Positions 5,440 through 28,379 of a stretch of 64,000 nt of DNA are shown piece by piece. The stretch spans positions 4,269 to 68,268 of the forward strand of contig CASEMS010000015.1 in NCBI GenBank assembly GCA_949288955.1. Reading direction: 5' to 3'. The translations under genes were made by a program, and so were the position numbers. The stretch's first letter is position 1. Every line of letters starts with the position of its first letter. The notes beneath the pieces are model-generated. The model was not told the origin of the DNA and searched no databases. It was given only the letters and a program-made list of their open reading frames with translations. This DNA comes from an uncultured Lentisphaeraceae bacterium (GTDB lineage Bacteria > Verrucomicrobiota > Kiritimatiellia > RFP12 > DVOR01).

Positions 5440-6937
<1,498 letters not shown>

Positions 6938-6966
<29 letters not shown>

Positions 6967-9900
6967 CGGGGCGGACGAGGACGAAGCGCGGGAGCCAGAC
7001 GGCCCAGTCGGCGAGGAGGCGTTTGGCCTTGGGGCTCCCGGTGGCGGCGGCGTGGGCCTCCACCAACGCCCGAAGCGCGCGCTCCTCCTCAGTGCCGGGG
7101 TCGATGTTCAGGAGGTCGACGGAGGCGAGGTTGCACCGGAGGTCGAAGTCCCCCGCCTCATCGAGGGCGTAGGCCAGGCCACCGGTCATGCCGGCGGCGA
7201 AGTTGTCCCCCACGGGGCCGAGGAAGAGCGCCGCCCCGCCGGTCATGTACTCGCACCCGTGGTCGCCCGCGCCCTCGCAGGTGAGGGTGGCGCCGGAGTT
7301 GCGGATGGCGAAGCGCTCGCCGGCCTGCCCGCAGACATGGATGCGCCCCGCGGTGGCGCCGTAGCCCACGGCATTGCCGACGGCGACGTTCGCCTCGGGC
7401 GCGTAGGTGGCGTCGGCGGGCGGGCGCACGGCCACGACGCCGCCGGAAAGCCCCTTGCCCACGAAGTCGTTGGCCTCGCCCTCCAACGTGATCGCCACGC
7501 CGCGTGGCAGGAAGGCGCCGAGGCTCTGCCCGGCCACGCCGCGCAGACGCACGCGGAGCGTCCCCTCGGGCAGGCCCGCCGCACCCGCGAAGGCGGCGAT
7601 CTCGCCGGCGAGGCCGGCGCCGACGGAGCGGTCGGCGTTGCGCACGGGGAGGTCGGCCTCGCGCCGTTCCCCCTCACGGAGGGCCGCCAAGCCGCCGAGG
7701 GCGGGGATGAGGCAGTCGCGGTCGTAGGCACCCGCGGGCGGGGCGTCGTCGGGACGGGCCGGCCGGTCATCCGGCGCGAGCGCCACGCGGCGGAGCAACG
7801 CGGAGAGGTCGAGCGCGGCGGCACCGCCGTGGGCGACACGCGCGGGGGCGTCATCCAACGCGTCGGCACGGAGCAGGTCGGTGCGTCCGCACGCCTCCTC
7901 CAGCGAATGGAGACCGAGCGCGGCGAGGGTCTCGCGCGTCTCGCGGGCGACGAAGCGCAGGAAGCGCGCCACGTGCGCAGGCTCCCCGGCGAAGCGGGCG
8001 CGGCACGCGGGCTCCTGCGTGGCGATGCCCACGGGGCACACGCCGCGGTGGCATTGTCGGCACATCGCGCAGCCGAGGCTGACGAGCAGGGCGGTGCCGA
8101 AGCCGAACTCCTGGGCGCCCAGAAGCGCGGCCACGACGACATCCCGCCCCGTGCGCAGACCGCCATCGACCTGGAGGCGCACGCGGCGGCGGAGACGGTT
8201 GAGGGCGAGCGTCTGGTGGGTCTCGGCCAACCCGATCTCCCACGGGAGCCCGGCGTGCTGGATGGCGGAGATCGGCGCCGCCCCGGTGCCGCCGTCGCTC
8301 CCGGAGATGAGGATGACGTCGGCATGGGCCTTGGCGACGCCCGCGGCGACGGTGCCGACACCGCCCTCGGAGGCGAGTTTGACGGAGATGCGGGCCGCGG
8401 GGTTGACGGCGCGGAGGTCGTGGATCAGCTGGGCGAAGTCCTCGATGGAGTAGATGTCGTGGTGGGGCGGCGGGGAGATGAGGGTGAGACCGGGGCGGGC
8501 GTGCCGCAGACGGGCGACGGTGGCGTCGACCTTGTGGCCGGGGAGCTGGCCGCCCTCGCCCGGCTTGGCGCCTTGGGCCATCTTGATCTGGAGGTCCTTG
8601 GCGTGGCGGAGGTAGGAGGCCGTAACGCCGAAGCGGCCGGAGGCGACCTGGCGGATGGCGCTGGCGCGGTCGGTGCCGTCGCGCGCGGGATCCTCGCCGC
8701 CCTCGCCGCAGTTGCTCATCGCGCCCAAGGCGTTGAAGGCGCGGGCGATGGCCTCGTGCGCCTCGGGGCTGATGGAGCCGAGGCTCATGGCGCCGGCGAC
8801 GAAGTGGCGGAGGATGGACGCCTCGTCCTCCACCGCGTCGAGAGGAAGGGGCGTGGTGGGGGCGAAGGCGAGCAAAGCGCGAAGCGTGCAGGCCTGGGCG
8901 TCGACGGCCTGGGAGAAGCGGCGGAAGCGGGCGTAGTCATCCTCGCGGACGGCGGCGCGGAGGTCGGCGACGGTCTGCGGCCCCCAGACGCGCCGCTCGG
9001 CGCGGGGCGCCTCCTCCAAGCGGCGGTGGACGTCCCGCGCGATGGCGTCCAGCCCCACGCCGCCGACGGGGCTGGGCGTGCCGGGGAGCCAACGGTCGAG
9101 GAACGCGCGGTCGAGGCCCAACGCCTCGAAGAGCTGGGCGGAGCGGTAGGAGCGCAAGGTGGCGATGCCCATCTTGGAGAGCACCTTGAGGATGCCTTGG
9201 CAGAGGGCCTCGACGAAGTTGCCGGTGGCGGAGACGGCGTCGTTGCCCGTACGACCGCGAGCGGCAAGGTCGCTGACGGTGGCCAACGCCAGCCAGGGAT
9301 GGACGGCGGTGGCGCCGTAGGCCAACAGGAGCGCCACATGGTTGACCTCGCGCACCTCGCCGGATTGGACGATCAGGCCGGTCTGCGAGCGGAGCCCCCG
9401 CTCGGCGAGGGCGCGGTTGACGGCGGCGACGGCGAGCAAGGGCGGGATGGGCGCCTCCTCGGGGGAGAGGCCGCGGTCGGTGAGGATCAGGAGGCGCCGC
9501 CCCTCGCCCGAGGCCAAGGCAACCGCCTGTTCGGCGAGGGCCGTGAGCGCGGCGTCGAGGGCCGTGCCGTCCCCGCCCGCGGGCCAGGCCAGGCGCAGGG
9601 TGCCGGGACGGAAGACAGGGTCGCCGACGCGCGCAAGGTGCTCGACCTCGGCATCGGTGAGGATGGGGCGGCGCATCTTGAGAAGGTGGGCGTGGGCGGG
9701 GGTCTCGGCGAGCGTGTTGGGGAGATTGCCCACGTAGGTCATCAGACTCATGACGGAACGTTCGCGGATGGGGTCGATGGGCGGGTTGGTAACCTGCGCG
9801 AAACGTTGGCGGAAGTAGTCGGGGAGAATGCGGGGGCGGTCGGAGAGGACGGCCGGCGCGGCGTCGTCGCCCATCGCGCCGGTGGGCTCGCGGCCGGTCT

Positions 9901-11317
9901 TCGCCATCTGCAAAAGCCCCACCTCGACGGCCTCGCGGGTGTAACCGAAGCGACGCCACAGCGGTTCGAGCGCGCCGGGCACGGGGTCGGGCGCCGTCTC
10001 GGCGAAGAGTGCGCCCAGGGCGATGCGGTTCTCCGCGACCCAACGGCGATAGGGCCGCCGCCGGGCGATGTGGGCCTTGAGCTCGGCGTCGCCCACCACG
10101 CGGTGGGCGGGGAGGTCGAGCCAGAGCATCTCGCCGGGACGGAGACGGCCGTGGTGGACGACCGAGTCGGGCGGGAGGTCGAGGACGCCGGCCTCGGAGG
10201 CGAGGACGAAGGTGCCATCCTGGCAGAGGGTGTAGCGGGCGGGGCGGAGGCCGTTGCGGTCGAGGACGGCGCCGGCGCGGAGACCGTCGGAGAAGACGAT
10301 GGCGGCGGGGCCGTCCCAGGGCTCCATGAGGGCCGATTCGTACTCCAGGAAGCCGCGGAGGTCGTTGCCCATGCGGTGGGTCGGGCCCCAAGCCTGGGGC
10401 AGCAGCAGGAGCATCGCGTGGGGGAGGTCGCGCCCGGCGCGGACGAGCAGCTCCAGCATGGCGTCAAGGCTGGCGGAGTCGGAGAGGCCGGGCGGGATGA
10501 GGGGGAGGGCCTCGGGGAGGTCGGGCAGGAGCGGGGAGGCGAGGGCGGCGGTTCGGGCGCGGAGGGCGGCGAGGTTGCCGCGGAGGGTGTTGATCTCGCC
10601 ATTGTGCGCCAACAGACGGAAGGGCTGGGCGAGGGCCCAGGTGGGGAAGGTGTTGGTGCTGTAGCGTTGGTGGGCCACGATGAGGGCGGAGGCGAAGTCG
10701 GGCGCGCGGAGGTCGGCGTAGAAGGCGTCGAGCTGGTGCGCGAGGAGGAGCCCTTTGTAGACGACGCTGCGGGCGGAGAGGGAGCAGACGAAGAGCCGCT
10801 CGCCCAAAGCCTGCTCCATGCGACGGCGGAGGATGAAGAGGCGACGCTCCAAAGCCTCGTCCGCGAGGTCGTCGGGCGCCGCCAGGAAGAGCTGGCGGAT
10901 GCGCGGACAGCTCGCGCGGGCGGAACGGCCGATGGCCGAGGGGTCGGTGGGCACCTCGCGCCACACGAAGGGCTCGAAGCCCTCCGCGCACGCCATCGCC
11001 TCGATCTCCCCCTCCGCCCCCTCGCCGCCGAAGAGCATCGCCACGGCATAGCGTCCCGACGCGGGCAGGTTGGGGACGTGCGCGCGGAAGAAACCATCGG
11101 GCATCGCGATGAGGACGCCCGCGCCGTCGCCCGTCTCGGGATCCCACCCCGCCGCGCCGCGATGGGCCAAACGGCGGAGCGCCTTCAGTCCCAGCGCGAC
11201 GATGCGATGGCTGGGGCGGTTGTTGAGGTCGGCCACGAGGCCGACGCCGCACGCGTCATGTTCATTCTGGGGGTCGTAGAGCCCCTGACGTTGGGGGAGG
11301 TCGAGCGACTGTTCCAT
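6938..11317 (-). CDS. gltB: Glutamate synthase large subunit, stand-alone (probably ferredoxin-dependent GOGAT)
   Basis: ~1460 aa with an N-terminal Ntn amidotransferase domain beginning MEQ...NEHDACGVG, plus FMN and GXGXG domains. Start set at ATG 11317; the upstream extension to 11467 merely reads through intergenic repeats. No gltD small subunit is adjacent. Confidence 0.9.
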
Positions 11318-11350
11318 GCGTCCGTTCCTTGATTGCGGTTCTTCCACGTT

Positions 11351-11366
11351 TGCAACTTCCGTGCCA
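11351..11366 (-). promoter_or_regulatory. Sigma-54 (-24/-12) promoter for gltB
   Basis: Minus strand reads TGGCACGGAAGTTGCA, a perfect TGGCACG-N4-TTGCA consensus. It lies ~30-45 bp upstream of the gltB ATG. Confidence 0.65.
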
Positions 11367-11424
11367 ACGGGCAGGACACCCACCCAAAAGCGGCCCGGTT
11401 CCCTCCCCCCGCCTCCCCCTCCCC

Positions 11425-11818
11425 GAGGATCAGCCGCCGATCCAAGGAGGATCAGCCCCTGATCCAAGGTGACTCAGCCGCTAAGTCTCCGAGAGGTGGC
11501 CGCGGATGGATTCTTTTCCGCGAGGACGCGAGGGTGCGCGAAGGACGGCGGGCTAACGCCGGGCGAAAGCGGCGGGGGCTGACGCCCCCTGGTTTCGCCC
11601 TCCCGCCCGCCGCCTTCGCGCCGCAAGAAAGTTGGCAACCTCCCCATAGAAGCCGGGGCACTCGGCGCGGGAGGGCACGAACGTGCCCGGCGTTAGCGCC
11701 GACGTGTCCCGGCGCGACTGCGTCTTCGCGGAGAATCAGCCGCTAAGTCTCCGAGACTCAGCCGCTGAGACGAGATGGATCGGCCGCCAATCCAAAGAGA
11801 GTCGGCCGCCGAGGGGGC
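11425..11818. repeat. Composite repeat element: 4x 22-bp units, a ~220-bp GC-rich structured core, then 4x 22-bp units (copy 1)
   Basis: 22-bp units at 11425-11512 and 11731-11818 flank the core. The core (~11500-11740) contains perfect hairpins GGGCACGAACGTGCCC and GGCGTTAGCGCC. The core recurs at ~85-90% identity in inverted orientation at 46040-46290. Confidence 0.75.
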
Positions 11819-12014
11819 GAGAAGGAGGGGTTACACGATTGTAAAATAGGGGCGATGTGTTACAAAAATGGATAGGCTCGACGGAAGATTCGGCGCTTGT
11901 TGCGGTTAGACGACGACCGCCAAGGAATCGGGGAGGCGGCTCGGAAAAAACTGTAAAACCCGCAAACGCGGGAGGGGCGCGCCGGGCGGCGTTCTTGGGC
12001 ACGTCCGACGCGTT

Positions 12015-12030
12015 TGGCACGGCGGTTGCA
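12015..12030 (+). promoter_or_regulatory. Sigma-54 (-24/-12) promoter for glnN
   Basis: TGGCACGGCGGTTGCA is a perfect TGGCACG-N4-TTGCA consensus. It lies ~36 bp upstream of the glnN ATG at 12066. Confidence 0.65.
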
Positions 12031-12065
12031 ACAAAGGGCGACACCACCCCCAATACGGAGCAGTC

Positions 12066-14131
<2,066 letters not shown>

Positions 14132-14140
14132 GGCACGGCG

Positions 14141-15862
14141 ATGTCCGACGCGCTCAAGCACGAATGCGGCGTGGCCCTCCTCCGTCTGAGGGGGCCAGCC
14201 GCCCACCCCGGGCAGAGCGCCTGGGGCTTCCGCAAGGCCGCCCTCCTGTTGGAGAAGCAGCACAACCGCGGCCAGGACGGCGCGGGACTGGCCTGCCTCC
14301 ACCTCCGCCCCGCCCAAGGCCGCCCCTGCTACGACCTGGAGAAGTCCGTGGCGCGGATGCCGCTGGCCGACCTGGTGGCGCGTTGCGGTCGGCGGCTGAC
14401 GGAGGAGGGCGACGCCTTCCGCGGCGAACTCTTCCTCGGCCACCTGCGCTACGCCACCTTCGGCCGACACGACCTCGCCGCCTGCCATCCCTTCGTGCGC
14501 GACAGCGCCTTCCTCGACCGCCTCTTGCTGCTGGCCGGCAACTTCAACCTCACCGACACGCGCGACCTGGCCGAAAGCCTCGCCGCCTCCGGCCACCACC
14601 TGCCCAGTCTGGCAGACGGCGCGGTCATCCTCCAATGTCTCACGCACGCACTGGAGCAGGAACGCTCCCGTCCCGAAGATTTCCGCGGCCTCACGCACGT
14701 CCTGCGCGAGGCCGCCTCGCGTTTCGACGGCGCCTTCGTCCTCTGCGGGATGCTCGGCGACGGCACGGCCTTCGCCCTGCGCGACGCCCACGGCATCCGC
14801 CCGGCCTATTGGTGGGAGGGTGAGGAGGCGGTGGCCGTGGCCTCCGAGCGCCCCGCCATCCAAGCCGCCTTCGACGTCCCCACCGAGGCCGTGCGCGAGC
14901 TGCCCCCGGGCGAGGCCCTCATCATCCGCCCCGACGGCTCGGCCTCCCTAGAGCCGTGCCTCGACCCCGCGCCACGGCGGGCGTGCGTCTTCGAGCGCGT
15001 CTACTTCTCCCGCGCCAACGACGCCGAGATCCACGCCGAACGCAAGCGGCTTGGCCACGCCCTCGCGCCGCAGGTGATCCGCGCCCTGGGCGGCGACCTC
15101 GAACATCTCTTCCTGAGCTACATTCCCAACTCCGCGCAGATCTGCTTCCACGGCCTCTTGGAGACCTTGCTGGGGGTGGCCGCGGCGGAGGGGCGCACGG
15201 TGCGCTTCGGGCAGGTGGCGGTGAAGGACGCCCGCTTCCGCACCTTCATCGCCGACGAGGCCACCCGCGACGACCTGGCCATGCACGTCTATGACGTTAC
15301 CTACGGCCTCGTCCGCCCCGGCGACACGCTCGTGGCGCTCGACGATTCCATCGTGCGCGGCAACACGATGCGCGCCGCCATCCTCCCCATCCTCGACCGT
15401 CTCGGCCCGCGCGAGATCGTCGTCGCCAGCAGCGCCCCGCCCGTCCGTTATCCCGACTGCTACGGTATCGACATGGCCACGCTCGACGAGCTCGTCGCCT
15501 TCAACGCCTTGGAGGACGTGCTGCGCGAGGAGGGGCGCGAGGCGTTGCTGCGGGACGCCTACGCCGAGGCCCGCCGTCAGCTGGCTCTGCCGCCCGAATG
15601 CCAAACGAACGTCCTGCGCACCCTCTACGCCCACGTGCCGGAGGCGCGCCTCACCCAGGCCATCGCCCGCCGCCTCCGCCCCGACGGCCTCCGCGCCAAG
15701 CTCACCGTCCTCTTCCAAACCGCCGCCGACCTCCGCCGTTGCTGCCCCAACCACACGGGCGACTGGTACTTCACCGGCGATTACCCCACGCCCGGCGGCA
15801 ACCGCGTAGCCAACCGCGCCCTCGTCAACCACATGGAGCACCGCCATGAACGCGCCTACTGA
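14141..15862 (+). CDS. PurF-like class II (Ntn) glutamine amidotransferase / phosphoribosyltransferase family protein with propeptide
   Basis: [11 protein letters not shown]: the Cys follows a short propeptide, as in B. subtilis PurF. PRTase motif [15 protein letters not shown] is present. At 573 aa it is longer than canonical PurF. Confidence 0.8.
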
Positions 15863-16979
15863 CCGCGACCGCCTTCGTCGCGAATGGGCCGCCGCCCGCG
15901 CCCGCCACGCCTTCCTTGCCCTTGCCGATGGGGCCGTCTTCCGAGGCGTCGCCTTCGGTGCGCGCACGGACGCCCTCGGCGAGGCCGTCTTCAACACCGG
16001 CATGACCGGTTACCAAGAAATCCTCACCGACCCCTCCTACGCCAGCCAGTTCGTCGTCCTCACCACGCCGGAGGTGGGCAACTACGGGTGCAACCCGGAG
16101 GACGCCGAGAGCCGCGGGCTCTTCCTCGCCGGACTGGTGGCGCGCCACGTGAACCCGCCCAGCAACTTCCGCGCCACGGAGAGCCTGGATGCCTACCTTG
16201 CCCGCCACGGCAAGCCCGGGATCTGCGGAGTGGACACCCGCGCCCTGACCCTCCACCTGCGTGAGCGCGGCGCCCAGCGCGCCTACCTCCACGTCTCCGA
16301 CGAGCCGCTCACCGAGGCCGAGGCCGTCGCCCGCGCGCAGGCTTGGTGCGGGCTCGACGGTCAGGACTACGCCGCAAAGGTCTCCTGCCCCGAGCCCTAC
16401 GTCTGGTGCGCGGAGGGGCGTCTGCGCGTGGTGGTCTACGACTTCGGCGTCAAGCACGGCATCCTCCGCCGCCTCGCCGCCGAAGGTTGCCGCGTGGAGG
16501 TGGTGCCGGCCCGGACGCCTGCGGAGGCGGTTCTGGCGCGGCGGCCCGACGGCGTCCTCCTCTCCAACGGCCCGGCCGACCCCTCCGCCCTGCCCTATGC
16601 GCGGCAGGCCGTGCGCGACTTGCTGGCCGCGCGGGTGCCGATCATGGGCATCTGCCTGGGCCATCAGTTGCTGGGGCTGGCCTGCGGGGCACGTTGCGGA
16701 CGGCTGCCCTTCGGCCACCACGGCTGCAACCACCCCGTCAAGGCCCTCGCCGACGGCGCGGTGGCCATCACCAGCCAGAACCACAACTACGCCCTCACCG
16801 CCCTGCCCGACTGCCTGGAGCAGACGCACGTGAGCCTCAACGACGGCACCTGCGAGGGCATCCGCCACCGCACGCTCCCCGCCTTCGCCGTCCAATTCCA
16901 TCCCGAGGCCGCCCCCGGCCCGCACGAGACGCGGGGGCTCTTCCGTTCGTTCACCGCATTGATGGAGGGCCGCCCGTGA
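15846..16979 (+). CDS. carA: Carbamoyl-phosphate synthase small (glutaminase) subunit
   Basis: CarA N-domain plus a class I GATase with catalytic Cys (GICLGHQLL) and His (HPE). The start overlaps the upstream gene's end. Confidence 0.95.
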   Translation: MNAPTDRDRLRREWAAARARHAFLALADGAVFRGVAFGARTDALGEAVFNTGMTGYQEILTDPSYASQFVVLTTPEVGNYGCNPEDAESRGLFLAGLVARHVNPPSNFRATESLDAYLARHGKPGICGVDTRALTLHLRERGAQRAYLHVSDEPLTEAEAVARAQAWCGLDGQDYAAKVSCPEPYVWCAEGRLRVVVYDFGVKHGILRRLAAEGCRVEVVPARTPAEAVLARRPDGVLLSNGPADPSALPYARQAVRDLLAARVPIMGICLGHQLLGLACGARCGRLPFGHHGCNHPVKALADGAVAITSQNHNYALTALPDCLEQTHVSLNDGTCEGIRHRTLPAFAVQFHPEAAPGPHETRGLFRSFTALMEGRP

Positions 16980-18595
16980 GCGCCACCAAGCATCTCTTCG
17001 TCACCGGAGGCGTGGTCAGCAGCCTCGGCAAAGGCGTCACCGCCGCCGCGCTCGCCTTCCTGCTCCGCCAGCGCGGCTATCGCGTGGCCATGCAGAAGCT
17101 CGACCCCTACCTGAACGTCGACCCCGGCACGATGAGCCCCTACCAACACGGCGAGGTCTTTGTTACCGACGATGGCGCGGAGACCGACCTCGACCTGGGG
17201 CACTACGAGCGCATCGCCGGCGTCACCTGCACCAAGGCCTCCAACTACACCAGCGGCAAGATCTACGGCGCCGTCATCGCCCGTGAGCGCCGGGGCGACT
17301 ACCTCGGCGCGACGGTTCAGGTCATTCCCCACGTTACCGACGAGATCCAGCGGGCCATGGGCGCCCTGCACGGCCCGGAGGTGGACATCGCCATCACCGA
17401 GATCGGCGGCACGGCGGGCGACATCGAGAGTCTGCCCTTTCTTGAGGCCGCGCGACAGTTCCGCCTGGCCCACGCCCCCGGCGACGTCCTCTTCATCCAC
17501 CTGACCTACGTCCCATACCTCAAGGCCGCCAAGGAGCTCAAGACCAAGCCTTCGCAGCAATCCGTCGGCGTCCTGCGCAACATTGGCATTCAGCCCGACC
17601 TCCTCATCTGCCGCGCCGAGCGTCGCCTCGAACCCGAGCACCTGCGCAAACTCGCCGTCTTCTGCAACGTCCCCGAGGCCTGCGTCATCGAGGAGCTCGA
17701 CGTCCGCCACGCCATCTACGAGGTGCCCATCAAACTTGCCCAGCGCGGCCTCGATGAGCAGGTGCTCCGCGGCCTTCGCCTCGAACCCCGCCCTCTGGAT
17801 TTGCGCGACTACCGCGCCTGGCTCGCCCGTGCGCTCCGCCCCACGCGCCCCGTCACCGTCGCCGTCGTCGGCAAGTACATCCGCCACCAAGACGCCTACA
17901 AGAGCATTTACGAGGCCCTCGCCCACGCCGCCATGGCCCACCACGCCAAGCTGGAGACACTCCGGATCGAGGCCGAGGAACTGGAGCGCGGCGACCCCGC
18001 CCGCCTCCTCGCCCGCGCCGACGCCATCCTCGTCCCCGGCGGCTTCGGTCGGCGCGGCCTGCTGGGGATGTTCCGCGCCGTCTCCTATGCCCGCGCCACT
18101 GGCACGCCCTTCCTCGGCATCTGCCTGGGGATGCAGTGCGCGGTCATCGCCTTCGCCCGCGACGCGCTCGGCTGGGCCGACGCCGACAGCACGGAGTTCG
18201 CCCCCGACACCGCCCACCCCGTCATCGCCCTCATGGAGGGCCAGCGGGCCATCCGCGGTCTCGGCGGCACCATGCGCCTAGGCGCCTACGCCTGCGACCT
18301 CGCGCCCGGCTCCCGCGCCGCCGCCCTCTACGGCGCCACCCCTATCGCCGAACGCCACCGCCACCGCTACGAGTTCAACCCCGCCTTCCGCGACGCCCTC
18401 GAACGCGCCGGGCTGCGCGTGGCGGGGACGAACCCCGAGACGGGTCTCGTCGAGGTCGTCGAGCTCCCTGACCACCCCTTCTTCGTCGGGTGCCAGTTCC
18501 ACCCCGAGTTCAAGTCCCGCCCCCGCGCGCCCCATCCCCTTTTCGACGGCCTCCTCGCCGCCGCCCTCGCCCATCGGGAGCACCGCCATGCCTAA
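16976..18595 (+). CDS. pyrG: CTP synthase
   Basis: [21 protein letters not shown]-loop and a C-terminal GATase (GICLGMQ). The GTG start overlaps the carA stop as GTGA. Confidence 0.95.
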
Positions 18596-21500
18596 GCGCA
18601 CCGACCTCCGCAAGATCCTCCTCATCGGCTCCGGCCCCATCGTCATTGGCCAGGGCTGCGAGTTCGACTACTCCGGCACCCAGGCCTGCAAGGCCCTCCG
18701 CGCCGACGGATACGAGGTGATCCTCGCGAACTCCAACCCAGCCACCATCATGACCGACCCGGCCGTCGCCGACCGCACCTACGTCGAGCCCCTCACCCCG
18801 GAGAGCCTTGAGGCCATCATCGCCCGCGAGCGTCCCGACGCCCTCCTTCCCACGCTCGGCGGGCAGACGGCCCTCAACCTGGCGATGGCGCTCTTCCGCC
18901 GCGGCACCCTCGGCCGCTACGGCGTGGAGATGATCGGCGCCAACGCCGCCAGCATCGACCGTGCCGAGGACCGCCAGAAGTTCAAGGAGGCCATGCTCGC
19001 CATCGGCCTCGACCTCCCCCGCTCCGGCACCGCCCACACCCTCGACGAGGCCCGCGCCGTCGCCGCGCGCATCGGCACCTGGCCCCTCATCGTCCGCCCC
19101 GCCTTCACCCTCGGCGGCACGGGCGGCGGCATCGCCGACGGCCCCGAGGACTTCGACCGCGTCGCCCAAGCCGGCCTCGACGCCTCCCCCACCTCCGAGA
19201 TCCTCATCGAGGAATCCCTCCTCGGCTGGAAGGAATTCGAGATGGAGGTCGTCTGCGATCGCGTGGGCAACGCCATCGTCGTCTGCTCCATCGAGAACCT
19301 CGACCCTATGGGCGTCCACACCGGGGACTCCGTCACCGTCGCCCCGATCCAGACCCTCACCGACGCCGAGTACCAAGCCATGCGCGACGACTCCTTCGCC
19401 GTCATGCGCGCCATCGGCATCGCCACCGGCGGGGCCAACGTCCAATGGGCCGTCGACCCCAAGACCGGCCGCCGCGTCATCATCGAGATGAACCCCCGCG
19501 TCTCCCGCTCCTCCGCCCTCGCCTCCAAGGCCACCGGCTTCCCCATCGCCAAGGTCGCCGCCCGCCTCGCCGTCGGCCACACCCTCGACGAGCTGCGCAA
19601 CGACATCACCGGCACCACCCCCGCCTCCTTCGAGCCCGCCCTCGACTACGTCGTCGTCAAGGCCCCCCGCTTCGCCTTCGAGAAGTTCCACGGCGCCGAC
19701 GACACCCTCGGCACCCAGATGAAGTCCGTCGGCGAAGCCATGGCCATCGGCGCCACCTTCCAGGAGGCCCTCCAAAAGGCCCTCCGTTCCCTCGAAACCG
19801 GCCGCGCCGGCCTCGGCGCCGACGGCCGCGACGCCTTCGCCGCACTCCCAGACGCCGCGCTCGAAGCCGCCCTCGCCCGCCCCACCGCCGAGCGTCTCTT
19901 CCAAATCCGCGAGGCCTTCCGCCGCGGCTGGACCCTCGACCGCCTCCACGCCCTCACCGCCATCGACCCTTACTTCCTCCGCCACATCCAGGAACTCGCG
20001 TTCTACGAGGACGAGATCGCCGCCGTTGGCACCCCCAAGGCCCTCGCCGCCGACCCCGAACGCTTCCGCCAAGCCAAGGCCCTCGGCTTCTCCGACCGCC
20101 AGATCGCCCACCTCCTCGGCGCCGACGAGGCCGCCGTCTCCGCCGCCCGCCGCGCCGTCGGCGTCCTCCCCGGCTACGGCCTCGTGGACACCTGCGCCGG
20201 CGAGTTCGCCGCCCGCACGCCCTACTATTATTCCAGCTACGCCCTCGCCCCCGACGCCCCCACGGCCGCCCCGACCGACGCCCGCCCCGCCATCCTCATC
20301 ATCGGCGGAGGCCCCAACCGCATCGGCCAAGGCATCGAGTTCGACGCCTGCTGCTGCCAGTCCGCCGCCGCCCTCCGCGCCCTTGGCTACCGCGTCGTCA
20401 TGGCCAACTCCAACCCCGAGACCGTCTCCACCGACTACGACACCTCCGACGCCCTCTACTTCGAACCCCTCACCCTCGAGGACCTCACCGCTCTCTACGC
20501 CCGCGAACGCTGCGTCGGCGCCATCGTCCAATTCGGCGGCCAGACCCCCCTCAACCTCGCCCAAGCCCTCAAGGACGCCGGGGTCGCCATCCTCGGCACC
20601 AGCCCCGACGACATCGACCTGGCCGAGGACCGCGACCGCTTCAAGCGCCTCGCCGACGCCATCGGCATCCTCCAACCGCCCAGCGGCATCGCCCACACCG
20701 CCGAGGAAGCCCTCGCCATCGCCGACCGCATCGGCTATCCCGTCCTCGTCCGCCCCTCCTTCGTCCTCGGCGGCCGCGGCATGGTCATCGTCCACCGCCG
20801 CGACGACCTCGATGCCCTCGCCCGCCAAGCCGTCGCCATCGCCGAAGGCAAACCCATCCTCATCGACCGTTTCCTCGAGAACGCCATCGAACTCGACGTC
20901 GACTCCGTCACCGACGCCGCCGGGCACACCGTCATCGGCGCCATCCTCGAGCACGTCGAACCCGCCGGCGTCCACTCCGGCGACGCGGCCTGCGTCACCC
21001 CGCCCCTCTCCCTCGCACCCGAGACCCTCGCGCAGATCCACGCCTACGCGGAAGCCTTCGCCCGCGCCCTCCACGTCCGCGGGCTCATGAACCTCCAGCT
21101 CGCCGTCCACGGGCGCGACATCTACATGATCGAGGTCAACCCCCGCGCCTCCCGCACCGTCCCCTTCGTCTCCAAAGCCATTGGCCTCTCCCTCGCCGGG
21201 GTCGCCGCCCGCGTGATGGTGGGCAAAAGCCTCGCCGAGGCCGGCCTCCCCGCCGAGCGCACCCCCACCCGCTTCGCCGTCAAGGAATCCGTCTTCCCCT
21301 TCGCCCGCTTCCCCGGCGCCGACGTCGCCCTCTCCCCCGAGATGAAATCCACCGGCGAGGTCATGGGCCACGCCGCCACCGTCGGCCTGGCCTACCTCAA
21401 AAGCCAGCTCGCCGCCGGCGCGCGCCTCCCCCTCCCCACCCCCGACGACCCCCACCCCACCCTCCTCCTCGCCTTGGCCGACGCCGACAAACCCGCCGGC

Positions 21501-21854
21501 GTCGCCGCCGCCAAACGCCTCGCCGCCCTCGGCTACCGCTTCTTCGCCACCCGCGGCACCGCCACCGCCCTCTGGCAGGCCGGCCTCCGCCCCAACGCCT
21601 GCTTCCGCCTCGGCGAAGGCAGCCCCAACGCCCTCGACCTCCTCCGCGAAGGCACCCTCCAATGGGTCGTCAACACCGCCGGCACAGGCGCCGACCCCAA
21701 CGCCGACGCCCTCCGCATCCGCGCCGCCGCCACGCTACGCGGCCTCCCCGTAACGACCGTCCTGCAAGGCTTCGTGGCCGCCGTCGAAGGCATCGAGGAA
21801 AGCCTCCGCCTCGCCCCCACCCCGCCCATCACCCTTCAGGAGTGGCACGTCTGA
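18588..21854 (+). CDS. carB: Carbamoyl-phosphate synthase large subunit
   Basis: [33 protein letters not shown]... with a duplicated ATP-grasp architecture, 1088 aa. The start overlaps the pyrG stop. Confidence 0.95.
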
Positions 21855-21908: not shown

Positions 21909-22176
21909 ATCCACTCCGCCGCCGATCCCCCACGATAACACATCGATGAGGCAGCAACATCCTCTGCGCTAAACGTTACAAGCGATTGGGATTGCGCCTC
22001 TCGGCCAACGGACACCACCCTCTCCAATGACCCCGACCACACCAAGTTCGTCGAGTCTGCAACCGCGCCTTCTCCGCCCCCTATCCTCCGAAAATGCCGT
22101 CACAGTAAGAAAACCGCCACGGACAACCCTGACAAAACACCAGCACAGAAGCCTTCGTCGTCAAAACACTCCGACC

Positions 22177-24957
22177 TCAAACGCCCGCTTGCGGCTCAAG
22201 CGCATTGGCACGGAGCGATTGAAGAATAGCACCGATGGCCCGACCCTCAGACTCCTCAAAAAGAACCGTGAAATGCGCTGGGCGATCGAATGGCGGGCGC
22301 ACGAAAATACCAAAGTCCTCCACGGCCCCATGCAACGTTACATACGTGATGATACGTTGCACAAACGCGATTTGCGCTTGGTTCAGCGCATGGGTATTGA
22401 TAAATGCCGCAAAGGCTTGGGAGACCGCCTCGCGATCCATGTGCGCAACGCGACGCACCATCAGCCCCAACGGCATGTCCGAAAAACTGCTCGCATAGTC
22501 CGCCTTTGTCCCCAGCACATGGAAGAGGATATGCTCCAACGCCTCGAAATCCGCCTTGGTCAACGGCAAGTTGTGCGTCAATTTGTAGATAGGCGCATCG
22601 TCGGCATGGTCGCGCAGATAGCGTTCCACCCGATCGTGATAGGAAACAAAGTCGTCGCCTTGGGGCAACTCGCCCCCCTCCGCCACGCGCAACACGCGAT
22701 CCGCGACATCCGTGAAGACGATGCGCCGCTCACCTTGCTCCAGGAAACGCGCCAACTCCCGCAACTCCAGGCGCACGGCCTCGAAGGCCAAGGGATCGGC
22801 CTGCTCCCAAAAGGCATCTTCCCGCACGCGCCGCAACGTCTCCAAGCGCGCCACGACCTGCGGGATGGACGTCTTCCGCATGAGCGTCTCGGCGATGGCG
22901 CACACGCGCCGCCGCGCTTGGGAGACGGCGGGCGAACTCTCCGCCCAAGCCAACGTCAGCCCATAGATCAACGCATCGAAACGTTTCGCTGCCTCGTCCG
23001 GTTCCGGGTCGCGCACCAAGGGTGCAATTTCCTCGCACAAGGTCGCCACGTCTTCCTCCGAGAGACAGACGTATGCCTGCCGATCGCGAAACCGTTCCAT
23101 GGCGCGGGCATGGAGCCGCACGCTCACCAATTCCCGGTTTAGCGCCGCCACCTGGCCGTGGCATACCGCGACCAGCCGCTCGCGCCAGGCGCGATAGGTG
23201 TCCGCCCCATATTCCGCGCCCTGAAAAAGGGCAATCAACGCCACGCGCCGCGCGAAAAGCGTCTCCGAGAGGCTCTGCGCCGCCTGCCCTTCTTCGCCGT
23301 CTTTGTTCAGCCGGAAAAAGGCGCAATTGTCGCAATAGTCGAAGAGAAAGAAGCGCCGCTTGCCCGCGTAAGCCCCATCCACCAAGTCTTGACACGCCAA
23401 CCCCGGGCACAGACGCGTGCCGCGCCCAAGCATCTGCCAAAACTTCGCCTTCGAGTAGACCCGCTTAAAGAAGACCAGGTTCACGCACTCCGGCACATCA
23501 ATGCCCGTGTCCATCATGTCCACCGAAATGGCAATCTGCGGCACGCGCCCGGGGTCGCGAAAATGCTCAATCAGCGTCTGCGCGAAACGATCCTCGCACA
23601 CAATGCTCCGCGCGAACGACCCGCGATAGTAAGGATACAGCGCGTTGAAGCGCTCCTCGATGAACCGTGCGTGGCGTGCATTCTGCGCGAAAATAATTGT
23701 TTTCCCCAACTTCTCCCCACCATCCACCTTGATACCACGCTCCATCACGTCCTGCAACACCAAGTCCACCGTGTCCGCGTTGAAAATGAAGTGATTGATC
23801 TGTTCAGGCTCGACCACCGCCGGCGGCGGCTCGTCCCCCCAATCCTCATCGTAGCGCTCTTTGTCCCGCTCCGACAAATCATCATAGACAATACCCCGGT
23901 CCAGCCGCTCCGTCTTCACCTCCATAAGATGATAAGGCACCAACACCTTGTCCCGCCCCTCCGCCGTCTCATATTCATATGCAAAGGTCGGCTCCCCATC
24001 CTTCATCCCAAAAAAGTCATACGTATTCCGATCCACCTCTACCTTCGGCGTCGCCGTCAGCCCCACCAGAATGGCATCGAGATACGCAAAGATCGCCCGA
24101 TACTTCTTGAAAATGCTCCGATGCGCCTCGTCCACCACAATCAAATCGAAATGCGCCACCGAAAAACGGGCACCCTCCGCCGCATCAAGCGCGTTCAGCA
24201 ACGTGGGGTAAGTGGCGAAAACCACCCGCGCCCCGAGCGGCTCCTCCCCCTCGCACAGATTGCACAACGCCAACTCCGGCAAATGTTGCTTGAACGCTTC
24301 CTTCGCCTGGCGCACCAAAGCCAGCCGATCCGCCAAAAAGAGCACGTTCTTCACCCACCCCCCACGGCTCAGCACATCCACCAAACTCACCGCCGTCCGC
24401 GTCTTCCCCGTCCCCGTCGCCATCACCAGCAAATGCCGCCGCCGACCCAATTCCAACCCCTCGCAGATCGCCCGGATCGCCTCCAACTGATACGGCCTGT
24501 TCGTGATCCGCTCATCCACCCGCAGATTGTGCAGCGTCGCCCGCCGCTCCCGGCTGTCCATCAGCCGCTCCAAATCCTCCCGCGCGAAAATCCCGCTCAC
24601 CCGCCGAGGCGACCCGCTTCGGTCGTCCCAAAAGGTCGTCTCCGCCCCATTCGTCAAGAACACCATCGGCCGCCGCCCAAACCGCCGCTCCAACCCATCC
24701 GCGTAAAGCCCCGCCTGCGTCTGCCCCGCCTGGCGATCCACACACCAACGTTTCGCCTCCACCACCGCCAAAGGCAACCCATCCCCGCCAAACAACACAT
24801 AATCCGCCCGCCCCATCCCCGCCGGCAACGCCACCGGGAACTCCCGAACCGCCCCCTCCAACCCCTCGTCCGCAAGCGACCACCCCGCACGCCGCAGATC
24901 CTCGTCAATCCACGCCGCCCGCGTCTCCGCCTCCGTTATCTCCTGCCCATCGCTCAT
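22177..24957 (-). CDS. hsdR: Type I restriction enzyme, R (restriction/helicase) subunit
   Basis: N-terminal MSDGQEITEAETRAAWIDEDLRRAGW is HsdR-like. Helicase motifs GTGKT and a DEAH-like VVDEAHRS are present, 927 aa. Start assigned to ATG 24957; the longer ORF extension has no support. Confidence 0.9.
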   Translation of the reverse strand: MSDGQEITEAETRAAWIDEDLRRAGWSLADEGLEGAVREFPVALPAGMGRADYVLFGGDGLPLAVVEAKRWCVDRQAGQTQAGLYADGLERRFGRRPMVFLTNGAETTFWDDRSGSPRRVSGIFAREDLERLMDSRERRATLHNLRVDERITNRPYQLEAIRAICEGLELGRRRHLLVMATGTGKTRTAVSLVDVLSRGGWVKNVLFLADRLALVRQAKEAFKQHLPELALCNLCEGEEPLGARVVFATYPTLLNALDAAEGARFSVAHFDLIVVDEAHRSIFKKYRAIFAYLDAILVGLTATPKVEVDRNTYDFFGMKDGEPTFAYEYETAEGRDKVLVPYHLMEVKTERLDRGIVYDDLSERDKERYDEDWGDEPPPAVVEPEQINHFIFNADTVDLVLQDVMERGIKVDGGEKLGKTIIFAQNARHARFIEERFNALYPYYRGSFARSIVCEDRFAQTLIEHFRDPGRVPQIAISVDMMDTGIDVPECVNLVFFKRVYSKAKFWQMLGRGTRLCPGLACQDLVDGAYAGKRRFFLFDYCDNCAFFRLNKDGEEGQAAQSLSETLFARRVALIALFQGAEYGADTYRAWRERLVAVCHGQVAALNRELVSVRLHARAMERFRDRQAYVCLSEEDVATLCEEIAPLVRDPEPDEAAKRFDALIYGLTLAWAESSPAVSQARRRVCAIAETLMRKTSIPQVVARLETLRRVREDAFWEQADPLAFEAVRLELRELARFLEQGERRIVFTDVADRVLRVAEGGELPQGDDFVSYHDRVERYLRDHADDAPIYKLTHNLPLTKADFEALEHILFHVLGTKADYASSFSDMPLGLMVRRVAHMDREAVSQAFAAFINTHALNQAQIAFVQRIITYVTLHGAVEDFGIFVRPPFDRPAHFTVLFEESEGRAIGAILQSLRANALEPQAGV

Positions 24958-25098
24958 GACAACCCCATTATCGCACAAAACCACCCCATCGCACAAACCA
25001 ACCGCCAAAGTCGCCTTGCCTGTTCCGGTGCGTTTGCTACAATAAAGGCAGAAAGAACGCCGCCGGAGCACACGAGGGTGTATCACCAGCATGAGCAA

Positions 25099-25695
25099 TC
25101 ATGTGGCAGTCGTGCCGGGGGTTCTTTCTTTTTCTTTATCGAACCGCGCCTGCCTTTCTGCCAGAATCTCTTGAAACTCTCCAGATTGGTATGCCCTCAA
25201 CAACCATTTCGAAGGCCCATACGATATCAAGCATAATTTTTCACTTCTGTACGCTCTCGAGAAATGATGTAATGGTTTGATGAATTCATAGTCGACTAAA
25301 TACTGTACGACTCCTGCGTCTTGTGGTAAGGAAAGTCTCCTATCCTCACTCATCAACAGTTGTGTTACCAAAGCAAATGGGAGTTCATTCATATGCTTTA
25401 GTTCTTCCCACTGCTTTTGCTCCAAGGCCAACTCCTTTAATTGTTCCTTTATCCACACACCTATTTTCCCAGCGATGAAAACCACACAAACCGTTAACAG
25501 AACCAAAAAGACAAGCCCAATGAATGGCCGATAGCTTTGGACAAATCCGCTTATTCCAAATCGAATGAGAATCGATTCGGGGAGGAACAGTAATGCTCCG
25601 GAAACGATTGTCAATACAACCACGCCTCTTTTTGAAAAAAGAACCGTGTACAGCAATTTCACTACCTGTTCCAAACACGCACTTCCATCAATCAT
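25099..25695 (-). CDS. Hypothetical two-TM membrane protein embedded between hsdS and hsdR
   Basis: 198 aa from ATG 25695, which has a GAGGGGAAG RBS and overlaps the hsdS stop as ATGATTGA. Two hydrophobic helices (VVVLTIVSGALLFLP, FIGLVFLVLLTVCVVFIAG) precede a charged soluble C-terminal region. Local GC is ~45-50% against ~70% background. I recognise no family for it. Confidence 0.6.
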   Translation of the reverse strand: MIDGSACLEQVVKLLYTVLFSKRGVVVLTIVSGALLFLPESILIRFGISGFVQSYRPFIGLVFLVLLTVCVVFIAGKIGVWIKEQLKELALEQKQWEELKHMNELPFALVTQLLMSEDRRLSLPQDAGVVQYLVDYEFIKPLHHFSRAYRSEKLCLISYGPSKWLLRAYQSGEFQEILAERQARFDKEKERTPGTTAT

Positions 25696-26791
25696 TTCCG
25701 CACTTCCCCTCAATATTGAAGTAACGTTGCTTTAATGATGCTTGCAAGGTTTCCGCGACAAGGAGTGATGCCTGAATAGCCTTTTTCTGTTTTTCTATGC
25801 CCGCTGATTGATTGGAGAAGACTTCAATAAGCGATAAGGGCGGGAACGGCAGCTCAATCAGATCCATCATCTGATTGGTGATTTGGTTGATGGTGGTGGT
25901 TTTGGCCGTTCGGATTTGTAGACGAAAAGACGGGGTTTGGAAGAAGGCTTGGACATATTCAGGATATGGTGTCCGGATAATCTTCATGAAAGAGCCGAAA
26001 TACATAGGCTCCGGTAATCTGGGAATGATGGCGGACTTCCCCACTAATTGTATGCTTCCATTACAGGCGCACATAAGGATGTCGTTCTCTTTAACCAAAT
26101 AACGTTCTTTGATCGGTATCTTTACCCGAACCGTATCGTCCAAGACAAGCGCTTGGTTCTGAATGTTGCCGGCACGGAGAACAACCGTTCCTTCCAAAGA
26201 AACATCGATCGGTTTATAGTTCAAGCCATTATAATATTCGGCAATATCAGACAGTTTTCGTATTGGCCATTGTTTTGAGTTGGTCACCATATCGCCGAAG
26301 AGCTCGTGGAAGCGGGATTGAGCAAGGGTGTCCAACAGGGCGAGTTGGCGGCGGTAGTTGGCGATGAGCGCATCGGCTTGGTCGAGGACGGCGGCGATGC
26401 GGCGTTGCTCGGGCAAAGAGGGAATGTCAAAAACCAACTCTTTTAGCCATTTGAAGTGCCGACTATAGCCAGTATTTGGAATGGATGTCGAGGCCAAATA
26501 GTGATACAGATAGCGGGGATTTACATCGGCTTGCCTTGGGCGAAGAATCTTCGTACCATCAGCGCCAAGGAAGAAGGGTTCATCCACATACTTCGCTATA
26601 CGCGTGTGGTCACCAAAAACAATCGCAGGGACATCATTGAAAAGCCCTTCTTCTAAGTCCGTGTAACCTGCGACTTGATTATGGCCTTGATCGATAATCG
26701 GGTGCGCACCTTTCGACAGATAGTTACCCGTCTGGAGCTTCCTCCCTCGTTTTGTCTCATCTGCAAACAATTCTCGGAAGGGAACCTTCAC
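25688..26791 (-). CDS. hsdS: Type I restriction-modification specificity subunit
   Basis: Two target-recognition-domain (TRD) architecture with conserved central and C-terminal coiled regions (LPEQRRIAAVLDQADALI...). The GTG start overlaps the hsdM stop as GTGA. Low-GC gene. Confidence 0.85.
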   Translation of the reverse strand: MKVPFRELFADETKRGRKLQTGNYLSKGAHPIIDQGHNQVAGYTDLEEGLFNDVPAIVFGDHTRIAKYVDEPFFLGADGTKILRPRQADVNPRYLYHYLASTSIPNTGYSRHFKWLKELVFDIPSLPEQRRIAAVLDQADALIANYRRQLALLDTLAQSRFHELFGDMVTNSKQWPIRKLSDIAEYYNGLNYKPIDVSLEGTVVLRAGNIQNQALVLDDTVRVKIPIKERYLVKENDILMCACNGSIQLVGKSAIIPRLPEPMYFGSFMKIIRTPYPEYVQAFFQTPSFRLQIRTAKTTTINQITNQMMDLIELPFPPLSLIEVFSNQSAGIEKQKKAIQASLLVAETLQASLKQRYFNIEGKCGND

Positions 26792-28308: not shown

Positions 28309-28379
28309 GCCAAACCTTTCCGTAGCCCGCATTGTAACAAACTTTGCGCAATACCTCCCCGTCGAAGACGGTTACGCAA

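Follow-up and report, generated by a model that had tools for sequence, protein, structure and literature searches.

A putative shared sigma-54 control region between the divergent gltB and glnN genes of an uncultured Lentisphaeraceae bacterium

Genes and features of the locus

The features found in the window, which is the whole 64-kb stretch of DNA that was analysed, are listed in Table 1. The genes gltB and glnN were divergently oriented, with a spacer of 748 bp between them. Pfam analysis of the gltB product identified the domains GATase_2, Glu_syn_central, Glu_synthase and GXGXG, and the match to PRK11750 scored 1579 bits (cut-off 1047). The gltD gene did not adjoin gltB at this locus.

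The glnN gene was a broken ORF in this assembly. A 1-nt deletion (C4 to C3) at 12845-12847 caused a frameshift, and the true end of the gene was the position given in Table 1. The C run had four residues in four relatives and three here. A tblastn search with the intact protein of L001 (related loci and assemblies are numbered with the prefix L) recovered glnN split into frame 1 (12066-12854) and frame 3 (12839-14128). L021, an independent assembly with 99.974% identity, was reached by look-up through the purF-like protein and served as an independent check of the frameshift; its glnN was intact (688 aa), and it had the same control region.

Four genes followed glnN on the same strand, and the junctions from glnN to carB were a 9-nt gap or overlaps of 4 to 17 nt. 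No terminator-like site was found on the plus strand. The order of glnN and the amidotransferase gene (and carA) was kept in L001-L004, L007, and L015. These genes, from 14141 to 21854, are probably co-transcribed with glnN as an operon of PglnN.

Table 1. Positions of genes and of predicted regulatory features in the window
Feature	Position	Strand	Basis or remark
One-component GAF-AAA+-HTH_8 enhancer-binding protein	5440-6966	plus	Pfam and sequence; GAFTGA intact
gltB, glutamate synthase large subunit (1459 aa)	6938-11317	minus	Pfam and NCBIfam (PRK11750)
PgltB, sigma-54 (-24/-12) promoter, TGGCACGGAAGTTGCA	11351-11366	minus	Exact consensus; predicted start site about 11340(-)
Repeat element, about 340 bp, 22-nt pseudo-palindromic sub-repeats around a GC-rich core	11449-11788		Between candidate enhancer and PgltB
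Candidate enhancer (UAS) site 1, perfect palindrome, TTACACGATTGTAA	11831-11844		-204 from glnN and -498 from gltB predicted start sites
Candidate enhancer site 2, degenerate palindrome, TTACAAAAATGGAT	11860-11873		29 bp from site 1; -174 from glnN predicted start site
A6 tract and TGTAAAAC half-site	11945-11959		About -88 from glnN predicted start site
PglnN, sigma-54 (-24/-12) promoter, TGGCACGGCGGTTGCA	12015-12030	plus	Exact consensus; predicted start site about 12041(+)
glnN, type III glutamine synthetase	12066-14131	plus	GSIII_N
purF-like class-II amidotransferase	14141-15862	plus	Pfam, NCBIfam
carA	15846-16979	plus	Pfam, NCBIfam
pyrG	16976-18595	plus	Pfam, NCBIfam
carB	18588-21854	plus	Pfam, NCBIfam
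PAS-HisKA-HATPase kinase	42157-43356		Domains
REC-AAA+-HTH_8 regulator, second GAFTGA-type activator of the window	43278-44702		Domains

Predicted sigma-54 promoters and tandem palindromes

Promoters of the sigma-54 type were recognised by a GG doublet at -24 and a GC doublet at -12, separated by a fixed spacing of 10 nt. The original prediction placed divergent perfect-consensus sigma-54 promoters at the right distance from gltB and glnN, and both points were borne out. The pattern TGGCACG-N4-TTGCA had two matches only in the 64-kb window, PgltB and PglnN (0.00 expected from 100 dinucleotide shuffles), and both promoters fitted the extended consensus TGGCACG-N4-TTGCW at 12 of 12 specified positions. 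The distance from the end of the motif to the start codon was 33 nt for gltB (ATG at 11317) and 35 nt for glnN (12066). When the C of the GC doublet was placed at -12, the predicted leaders were 23 nt for gltB and 25 nt for glnN, with the Shine-Dalgarno sequences AAGGAA and GGAG. The start sites and the presumed RpoN dependence of the two promoters are computational predictions. Matches to a relaxed pattern (1-2 mismatches) occurred in the window at chance frequency, mostly within genes, and yielded no further sigma-54 promoter.

No rpoN, PII or amtB gene was found among the large ORFs scanned (37 in all) in the 64-kb window. Because the window lacks rpoN, the presence of RpoN in the source genome is deduced from the two GAFTGA activators of the window and from a survey in which RpoN was found in every Lentisphaerae and Verrucomicrobia genome included (PMC3372290, Table 1).

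The gltB/glnN spacers of related Kiritimatiellae MAGs and of Victivallis (Lentisphaerae) were used for comparison. Both promoters were kept at the same position in L001, L002, L004, and L007 (Kiritimatiellae MAGs), in L009/L010 and L014 (Victivallis lenta and V. vadensis), and in L015; L003 kept the glnN promoter alone and L016 the gltB promoter alone. The pattern TGGCA[CT]G-N4-TTGC[ATG] was present upstream of gltB in L001, L002, L004, L007, L016, L009, L014, and L015, and orthologues of PglnN were present upstream of glnN in L001, L002, L003, L004, L007, L009, L014, and L015. The promoters were thus conserved beside the same genes in at least nine other loci, with spacers of 258-748 bp and unrelated content. 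Between loci the N4 letters changed and TGGCAYG and TTGC remained constant, although the surrounding DNA had diverged. L005, L006, and L008 represented lineages without the promoter, and a metagenome scan with GlnN returned one short locus only, from which the sigma-54 motif was absent. The only stretches of alignment A2 (mean identity 62%) without any variation were the two TTACA sites, the promoter, and the ATG with its Shine-Dalgarno sequence; the invariant block at PglnN was TTTGGCACGGCG.TTGCAA.

The two TTACA sites lay in the AT-rich patch of the spacer (11825-11875) and belonged to a conserved tandem pair of palindromes of the form TTACA-N4(5)-TGTAA, which were always paired and 29-31 bp apart. 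Site 1 was the sole palindrome match in the window with at most one mismatch (0.04 expected); it was kept in all related spacers, and TTACA..GT.A was invariant in alignment A2. Site 2 was degenerate in the window (2 mismatches), with an invariant left half-site TTACA in the same alignment. The tandem spacing of 29-31 bp recurred in L001, L002, L004, L007, L009, L014, and L015. Palindromes with at most one mismatch numbered 17 in 4,759 bp of spacers versus 2 in 312,880 bp elsewhere. At every locus the candidate UAS pair lay between -78 and -204 from at least one promoter, and in Victivallis it lay at -78/-108 from both predicted start sites.

These results agree with the suggestion that the AT-rich patch may host the enhancer, for which the palindrome pair is the candidate UAS. 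The motif differed from the types named in the original prediction: the 648 bp of spacer scanned contained neither the NifA-type TGT-N10-ACA nor an NtrC-type site (GCAC/TGCA dyads). The proposed IHF-like bend was not upheld, as the IHF consensus WATCAA-N4-TTR was absent from the same 648 bp. Nearer to glnN, the A6 tract with its half-site is possibly a weak third site or an intrinsic bend; similar AAA(N)TGT(GT)AAC sequences were present at -88 in L001, at -98 in L003, and also in L016 and L002, and were absent in L007. An Rfam scan of 11250-12150 for the glutamine riboswitch and other RNAs gave two sub-threshold chance matches only.

The composite repeat that had been described in the spacer together with the AT-rich patch was present, as was the patch, but its assignment to the control region did not hold. 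The element was absent from the spacers of relatives and present in the independent assembly L021; it is a lineage-specific insertion outside the conserved control module. A second copy at 46009-46348 was its reverse complement, with 85% identity (blastn of the L021 copy). An invertible switch formed by the repeat core was considered and rejected: local alignment showed that the second copy was the whole element reversed (score 419 versus 60), and its flanks only seem co-oriented because they are pseudo-palindromic. The distance from PgltB to the palindromes was about 500 bp, greater than in any relative; given the insertion of about 340 bp, activation of PgltB would therefore have to come from that distance.

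Candidate activators in the window

The activator gene beside gltB was convergent with it and overlapped its 3' end by 29 nt. Its product carried GAF, Sigma54_activat (PF00158, 238 bits), AAA_lid_14 and HTH_8 domains in Pfam, and in the translation both Walker A (GATGTGKE) and GAFTGA were intact. The top NCBIfam match was nifA (TIGR01817), at 459.2 bits below the equivalog cut-off of 528.85, and the top PDB match was NifA 9qq6 (E = 3e-109, residues 5-499 versus 18-516). Nitrogenase genes were found neither in the window nor in the loci of the activator orthologues.

Activator orthologues were 64-86% identical, and in 7 of the 10 lineages examined they formed part of the gltB operon or adjoined it; in Victivallis the orthologue was inside the operon. 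This linkage spans the Kiritimatiellae-Lentisphaerae divide, that is, two PVC lineages. The activator was absent within 10 kb of gltB in L001, L002, and L004, and orthologues in L011-13, L017, and L022 were unlinked to gltB, so the link between activator and site rests on partial synteny. The HTH recognition region was conserved among the orthologues and unlike that of the paralogous response regulator. Domains, motifs and synteny thus sustain the view that a NifA-like GAF sigma-54 activator with an intact GAFTGA adjoins gltB, and this protein is the best candidate for binding the palindromes.

A second pair of regulatory genes, described earlier as NtrBC-like and as part of a nitrogen-assimilation regulon, was found at 42157-44702. 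The pair exists as a kinase and a response regulator; its identity as NtrB/NtrC and its link to nitrogen were not supported. The regulator scored 429 bits with TIGR01818 (cut-off 558.6) and 360 with PRK10923 (cut-off 620), and its top match was AtoC with 459 (cut-off 714). The kinase scored 123 bits with NtrB (PRK11073, cut-off 240), and its top match was AtoS with 231 (cut-off 646). The neighbouring genes encoded a class-III aminotransferase, a glycine-transporter-family protein and a DnaJ-zinc-finger protein. Around the pair there were no nitrogen genes, no good sigma-54 motif and no palindrome.

Proposed control of gltB and glnN and comparison with known systems

The comparative evidence supports a core reading in which divergent sigma-54 promoters are served by a candidate enhancer in the AT-rich patch and by the NifA-like activator next door. 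The full model, in which the spacer between gltB and glnN controls transcription in both directions through a shared palindrome enhancer that is bound by the neighbouring GAF activator, is probably correct. In this model, sigma-54 RNA polymerase would wait in closed complexes at both -24/-12 promoters. The tandem dyads (sites 1 and 2), about three helical turns apart, would form the shared enhancer. Dimers of the GAF activator would bind the dyads and assemble an active AAA+ ring, which would loop to the promoters and drive the formation of open complexes by ATP hydrolysis through the GAFTGA loop. The GAF domain probably senses a metabolite of nitrogen status; with NifA as a guide, the most obvious ones would be 2-oxoglutarate or glutamine. 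The output would be gltB on one side and, on the other, glnN, very probably together with the purF-like gene, carA, pyrG and carB, all of which encode glutamine-consuming enzymes. The ancestral form in this model is the compact and symmetrical one that persists in Victivallis.

A different assignment of the binding protein appears unlikely. The promoters and the enhancer would be real, but the palindromes would be bound by another protein, encoded elsewhere or identical with the REC regulator at 43278-44702, and the GAF protein would regulate something else. The absence of the activator within 10 kb of gltB in L001, L002, and L004, its unlinked orthologues in L011-13, L017, and L022, and the presence of a second GAFTGA-type activator with HTH_8 in the window would fit this assignment. 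Against it stands the close linkage of the GAF activator to the gltB operon in 7 of 10 lineages, across the Kiritimatiellae-Lentisphaerae divide; moreover, the REC regulator is encoded 30 kb away with unrelated genes around it, differs in its HTH recognition sequence, and has neither palindrome nor sigma-54 motif nearby.

It is quite improbable that the palindromes are the operator of a separate nitrogen regulator (a repressor or a class-I activator), or the -35/-10 hexamers of a sigma-70 promoter for basal transcription. The minus strand over both sites does read TTGTAA-16-TACAAT, which is sigma-70-like, and V. vadensis (L014) has TTGTAA-18-TACAAT on either strand. In E. coli, NtrC sites overlap the sigma-70 promoter glnAp1, a precedent for dual use. 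However, conservation extends to the dyad symmetry of the individual sites and to their pairing at three turns rather than to a -35/-10 pair, and the hexamers are poor in L001, L002, and L007. Sigma-54 promoters require an activator, the activator found here has a DNA-binding domain, and the spacers hold no other conserved block; palindromes at -78/-108 overlap neither promoter.

The third alternative, that the two promoter motifs arose by chance or are the inverted repeats at the ends of a mobile element, without promoter function, is hardly credible: they do form an 18-nt inverted repeat (89% complementary, 646 nt apart) with the repeat element between them, but no match was expected by chance and their conservation in at least nine other loci, where the element is absent, effectively refutes it.

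Under the preferred model, the locus resembles glnAp2/NtrC (NR-I) of enterobacteria, which has a -24/-12 promoter, two dyad sites about three turns apart, looping, and an activator with a GAFTGA AAA+ domain and a Fis-type HTH. Here too, a -24/-12 promoter precedes a glutamine synthetase gene with two upstream dyads about three turns apart, the activator is a GAFTGA AAA+ protein with an HTH, and looping with ATP hydrolysis is proposed. Unlike NtrC, the activator is a one-component GAF protein without a phosphorylated REC domain (TIGR01818, 322 bits; cut-off 558.6). A further difference is the synthetase, which is of type III (glnN) instead of GSI; the site reads TTACA-N4-TGTAA where that of NtrC reads TGCACC-N5-GGTGCA; and one enhancer would serve two divergent promoters, one of them driving gltB.

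With NifA (TIGR01817; 9qq6), the activator shared the order GAF, AAA+, HTH and aligned end to end; it differed in scoring below the equivalog cut-off, in its predicted targets (gltB and glnN), and in a spacer without TGT-N10-ACA. Oxygen-sensitive NifAs have a Cys-rich linker between AAA+ and HTH, and the corresponding stretch here is unlike it because it holds a single Cys. Nlh1 and Nlh2 of Aquifex aeolicus (4g3k, 4g3w) are also GAF-type sigma-54 activators and showed GAF similarity (E = 4.7e-16, residues 9-177); the relationship is distant, and we know of no established targets or ligands for them, whereas here conserved synteny and sites allow targets to be predicted. In Klebsiella, the region between nifJ and nifH has a divergent pair of -24/-12 promoters with activator sites between them. 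The same back-to-back layout with candidate activator sites in between was found here, but the activator, the site and the genes are different, and the compact Victivallis form is strictly symmetrical (-78/-108).

The founding case of enhancer-dependent transcription in bacteria is the control of glutamine synthetase by sigma-54, and a sigma-54 design at gltB/glnN is for that reason to be expected. The shared switch is most likely this classic nitrogen-control design with another activator and another binding site. A broader reading is more tentative and falls somewhat short of probable: the activator would be an undescribed one-component nitrogen master regulator of Kiritimatiellae and Lentisphaerae, perhaps of more PVC bacteria, that replaces NtrB/NtrC, senses a metabolite through GAF, binds a new enhancer (tandem TTTACA-N4/5-TGTAAA) that lies symmetrically between the two promoters, and co-activates GOGAT, GSIII and, via the glnN operon (purF-like, carAB, pyrG), those steps of purine and pyrimidine synthesis that depend on glutamine. 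On this reading the enhancer tolerates distance, which would account for the repeated insertion of different repeat elements into the spacer.

No literature on sigma-54 or nitrogen regulation in gut Kiritimatiellae or Lentisphaerae was found, and searches on glnN with rpoN and on the palindrome motif returned nothing relevant. For these poorly studied gut bacteria, the analysis provides a regulon prediction that comprises an activator family, a binding motif, a symmetrical shared enhancer and a likely reach of nitrogen control to the enzymes of nucleotide precursors. Victivallis species are cultivable, and the prediction is therefore directly testable. The locus also offers a natural example in which a mobile repeat shifts an enhancer about 400 bp from one promoter.

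Predicted divergent sigma-54 promoters and their genes

The two promoter motifs were found at the positions and on the strands claimed in the original prediction. TGGCACG-N4-TTGCA occurred at these two sites alone in 64 kb and in none of 100 dinucleotide-preserving shuffles; relaxed versions of the pattern gave extra matches at chance level only, most within genes. The motifs ended 33 nt (gltB) and 35 nt (glnN) ahead of the ATGs, in agreement with the proposed spacing. With the C of the GC doublet placed at -12, transcription was predicted to start at about 11340 (minus) for gltB and about 12041 (plus) for glnN, with leaders of 23-25 nt and ribosome-binding sites AAGGAA and GGAG; both promoters would depend on RpoN.

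Features of the gltB-glnN region and related elements
Feature	Position	Strand	Description
Activator ORF	5440-6966	plus	GAF, sigma-54 interaction domain, AAA lid, Fis-type HTH
gltB	ATG 11317, end 6938	minus	glutamate synthase large subunit; complete set of four Pfam domains
PgltB motif TGGCACGGAAGTTGCA	11351-11366	minus	exact match to TGGCACG-N4-TTGCA
Repeat element, ~340 bp	~11449-11788; 46009-46348	opposite orientations	both copies intergenic
Candidate enhancer site 1 TTACACGATTGTAA	11831-11844		perfect palindrome in AT-rich patch 11825-11875
Candidate enhancer site 2 TTACAAAAATGGAT	11860-11873		degenerate copy, 29 bp beyond site 1
A6 tract and TGTAAAAC half-site	11945-11959		~-88 from glnN start; semi-conserved (L001, L003, L016, L002)
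PglnN motif TGGCACGGCGGTTGCA	12015-12030	plus	exact match to TGGCACG-N4-TTGCA
glnN	start 12066	plus	type III glutamine synthetase N-terminal domain
Genes downstream of glnN	14141-21854	plus	purF-like class-II amidotransferase, carA, pyrG, carB
Kinase/regulator pair	42157-44702		PAS kinase, REC-AAA+-HTH regulator

Protein-family matches bore out the identities proposed for both flanking genes. GltB, whose start was set by comparison with relatives, scored 1579 bits against NCBIfam PRK11750 (cut-off 1047). No gltD follows gltB in the window, and PgltB therefore probably drives gltB alone here; gltD was present in L009 (Victivallis lenta), L014 (V. vadensis), L015 (a 'Fibrobacterales' MAG) and L016. 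In the gut MAG locus L007, a gap of ~1.4 kb after gltB had the right size for gltD.

The glnN frame was broken where a C run at 12845-12847 had lost one base (CCCC to CCC), and the true reading frame ended at 14131. The run was C3 in the window versus C4 in the gut MAG loci L001, L002, L003 and L007 and in L021, an independent metagenome assembly 99.974% identical to 9142-20862 with the same spacer. Since L021 encoded an intact GlnN of 688 aa, the frameshift probably reflects either an error in the assembly or strain variation of very recent origin. Both frames of the split gene stay open for ~700 codons by chance in 68% GC DNA.

The junctions of the four genes after glnN were a 9-nt gap or overlaps of 4 to 17 nt, and no terminator-like site was found on the plus strand. 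Judged from this layout, PglnN would likely co-transcribe glnN with all four, whose products take their nitrogen from glutamine. Relatives kept the glnN-amidotransferase(-carA) order, and in them glutamine synthesis and glutamine-consuming enzymes are likewise clustered.

Conservation of the control region and a candidate enhancer

A GlnN search retrieved 85-95% identical proteins on gut MAG contigs of uncultured Kiritimatiellaeota or Lentisphaeraceae (L001-L007), and the divergent layout was also found in L001, L002, L004, and L007. A sigma-54 motif preceded both genes in every related spacer: TGGCACG-N4-TTGCA on the glnN side (L001, L002, L003, L004, L007), TGGCA[CT]G-N4-TTGCA on the gltB side (L001, L002, L004, L007, L016), and TGGCACG-N4-TTGC[TG] on both sides in L009/L010 (V. 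lenta), L014, and L015. The N4 positions varied freely and the -24 and -12 blocks were constant, in spacers of 258 to 748 bp with otherwise unrelated content. Four aligned glnN upstream regions (62% mean identity) held five invariant islands, namely two TTACA-containing sites, TTTGGCACGGCG.TTGCAA, GGAG, and ATG. This conservation across divergent spacers excluded both chance matches and mobile-element ends as explanations of the motifs.

The motif was not found in the more distant glnN loci L005, L006, and L008 (48-60% GC), whose homologues (85-87% protein identity) lacked gltB synteny; L005 and L006 carried sigma-70-like sequences in its place. In these lineages, the enzyme has apparently been switched to a different class of promoter. 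L004 (CAVDHG010000015.1) was labelled Agathobacter rectalis, a Firmicute, yet had 64% GC, and its gene order, promoters, and palindromes were common to the Kiritimatiellae loci; its bin is probably contaminated or mislabelled, and similar doubt may attach to L015, labelled 'Fibrobacterales'.

The AT-rich patch had been proposed to host the enhancer and an IHF-like bend. The first part was supported by conserved tandem palindromes that lie there; the 648-bp spacer contained no IHF consensus, and neither of the activating sequences suggested, NifA-type TGT-N10-ACA or an NtrC-type dyad, was found in it. Site 1 was the sole window match at one mismatch or fewer (0.04 expected). TTACA-N4-TGTAA pairs 29-31 bp apart were present in every gltB/glnN spacer (N5 in L015), some with a third copy. 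At one mismatch or fewer, 17 palindromes were counted in 4,759 bp of spacers versus 2 in 312,880 bp elsewhere. In two Victivallis species, the spacer was just 258-264 bp and the palindromes lay at -78/-108 from both predicted starts; there the candidate enhancer is strictly symmetrical and common to both promoters. Paired dyads at such positions, separated by three helical turns, are the classic enhancer-binding-protein arrangement. A literature search found no paper describing the TTACA-N4-TGTAA motif. The A6 tract and half-site may serve as a third, weaker site or bend the DNA intrinsically.

The half-sites of both palindromes also formed a sigma-70-like TTGTAA-16-TACAAT (11838-11865, minus), and V. 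vadensis (L014) had TTGTAA-18-TACAAT on both strands. Dual use of the palindromes, also as a sigma-70-like promoter, is possible and has E. coli glnAp1 as precedent. The hexamer reading was not conserved in L001, L002, and L007, and it was therefore treated as a by-product of the palindromes.

The composite repeat, originally counted in the control spacer, proved to be a lineage insert outside the conserved module, present in L021 and absent from relatives' spacers. It had a GC-rich core, short inverted repeats at its bounds, and flanks of GACTCAGCCGCTAAGTCTCC-like pseudo-palindromic sub-repeats with a 22-nt period; it matched no protein or RNA family and looks MITE- or REP-like. Its insertion between the palindromes and PgltB places them at -498/-526 from the gltB start (relatives, -78 to -168). 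Arrays of GGGCCCACTGGG-type units (L002, ~9640-9870) and nested inverted repeats (L004, ~6290-6420) were seen in other gltB-glnN spacers, and repeat elements seem to have landed in this spacer repeatedly.

The activator and other regulators

The GAF sigma-54 activator predicted beside gltB was confirmed, with GATGTGKE and GAFTGA intact; its gene was convergent with gltB, with 3' ends overlapping by 29 nt (6938-6966). Its best NCBIfam match was NifA, aligned end to end (459 bits, cut-off 528.85), and its closest solved structure was full-length NifA (9qq6, E = 3e-109). The GAF domain, presumably ligand-binding, also matched Aquifex Nlh1. 'NifA-like' is a fair label, but tests of whether the protein is NifA itself came out negative.

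Orthologues (64-86% identity) were widespread in Kiritimatiellae and Victivallis. The activator came last in gltB-gltD-dapF-aminotransferase-activator (V. lenta, V. vadensis, L023), followed gltB-gltD in L015, was convergent with the gltB(-gltD) unit in L016, L007, and the window, and was located away from gltB in L011-13, L017, and L022. Linkage to gltB was thus seen in 7 of 10 lineages, across two PVC lineages. The orthologues' HTH region was well conserved and unlike its counterpart in the paralogous response regulator, in keeping with the conserved palindrome half-sites. The activator is the leading candidate for a protein binding the palindromes.

The pair at 42157-44702 had been assigned to the nitrogen regulon as NtrBC-like. 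It fell under every NtrB and NtrC cut-off, with AtoS and AtoC as best matches; its neighbour genes were unrelated to nitrogen assimilation, and no palindrome or good sigma-54 motif was found around it. Nothing ties it to the gltB-glnN control region. The 64-kb window held no rpoN, PII or amtB gene. We infer that the source genome encodes RpoN, because the window has two GAFTGA activators and a survey reported RpoN in all Lentisphaerae and Verrucomicrobia genomes covered (PMC3372290, Table 1).

Elsewhere, ~22000-28400 held a type I restriction-modification cluster (HsdM 26788-28332, HsdS 25688-26791) and large ORFs without family match; a GC3 screen flagged almost no ORFs, and the stretch is possibly a horizontally acquired island. 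In L016, a close relative (7328-7436, minus), an exact sigma-54 motif TGGCACGGGACTTGCA lay upstream of dnaK (HSP70), with four tandem TGGCACGGTGTTGGCA-like copies 11 bp apart farther upstream; the arrangement could represent a chaperone promoter under sigma-54 control, accompanied by an unusual set of repeats.

Relation to known nitrogen control

The control region has the same mechanism design as glnAp2/NtrC, but differs from it in the one-component GAF activator, the type III synthetase, the dyad motif, and the single proposed enhancer common to two divergent promoters. A 2025 sigma-54 regulon survey placed glutamine synthetase control mainly in Pseudomonadota, with Kiritimatiellae and Victivallis lineages outside its coverage (PMC12316311), and a literature search turned up nothing published for either group on sigma-54 or on nitrogen control. 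The proposed gltB-glnN switch has good support, will help annotation, and lends itself to direct testing in Victivallis, but would not surprise a specialist.
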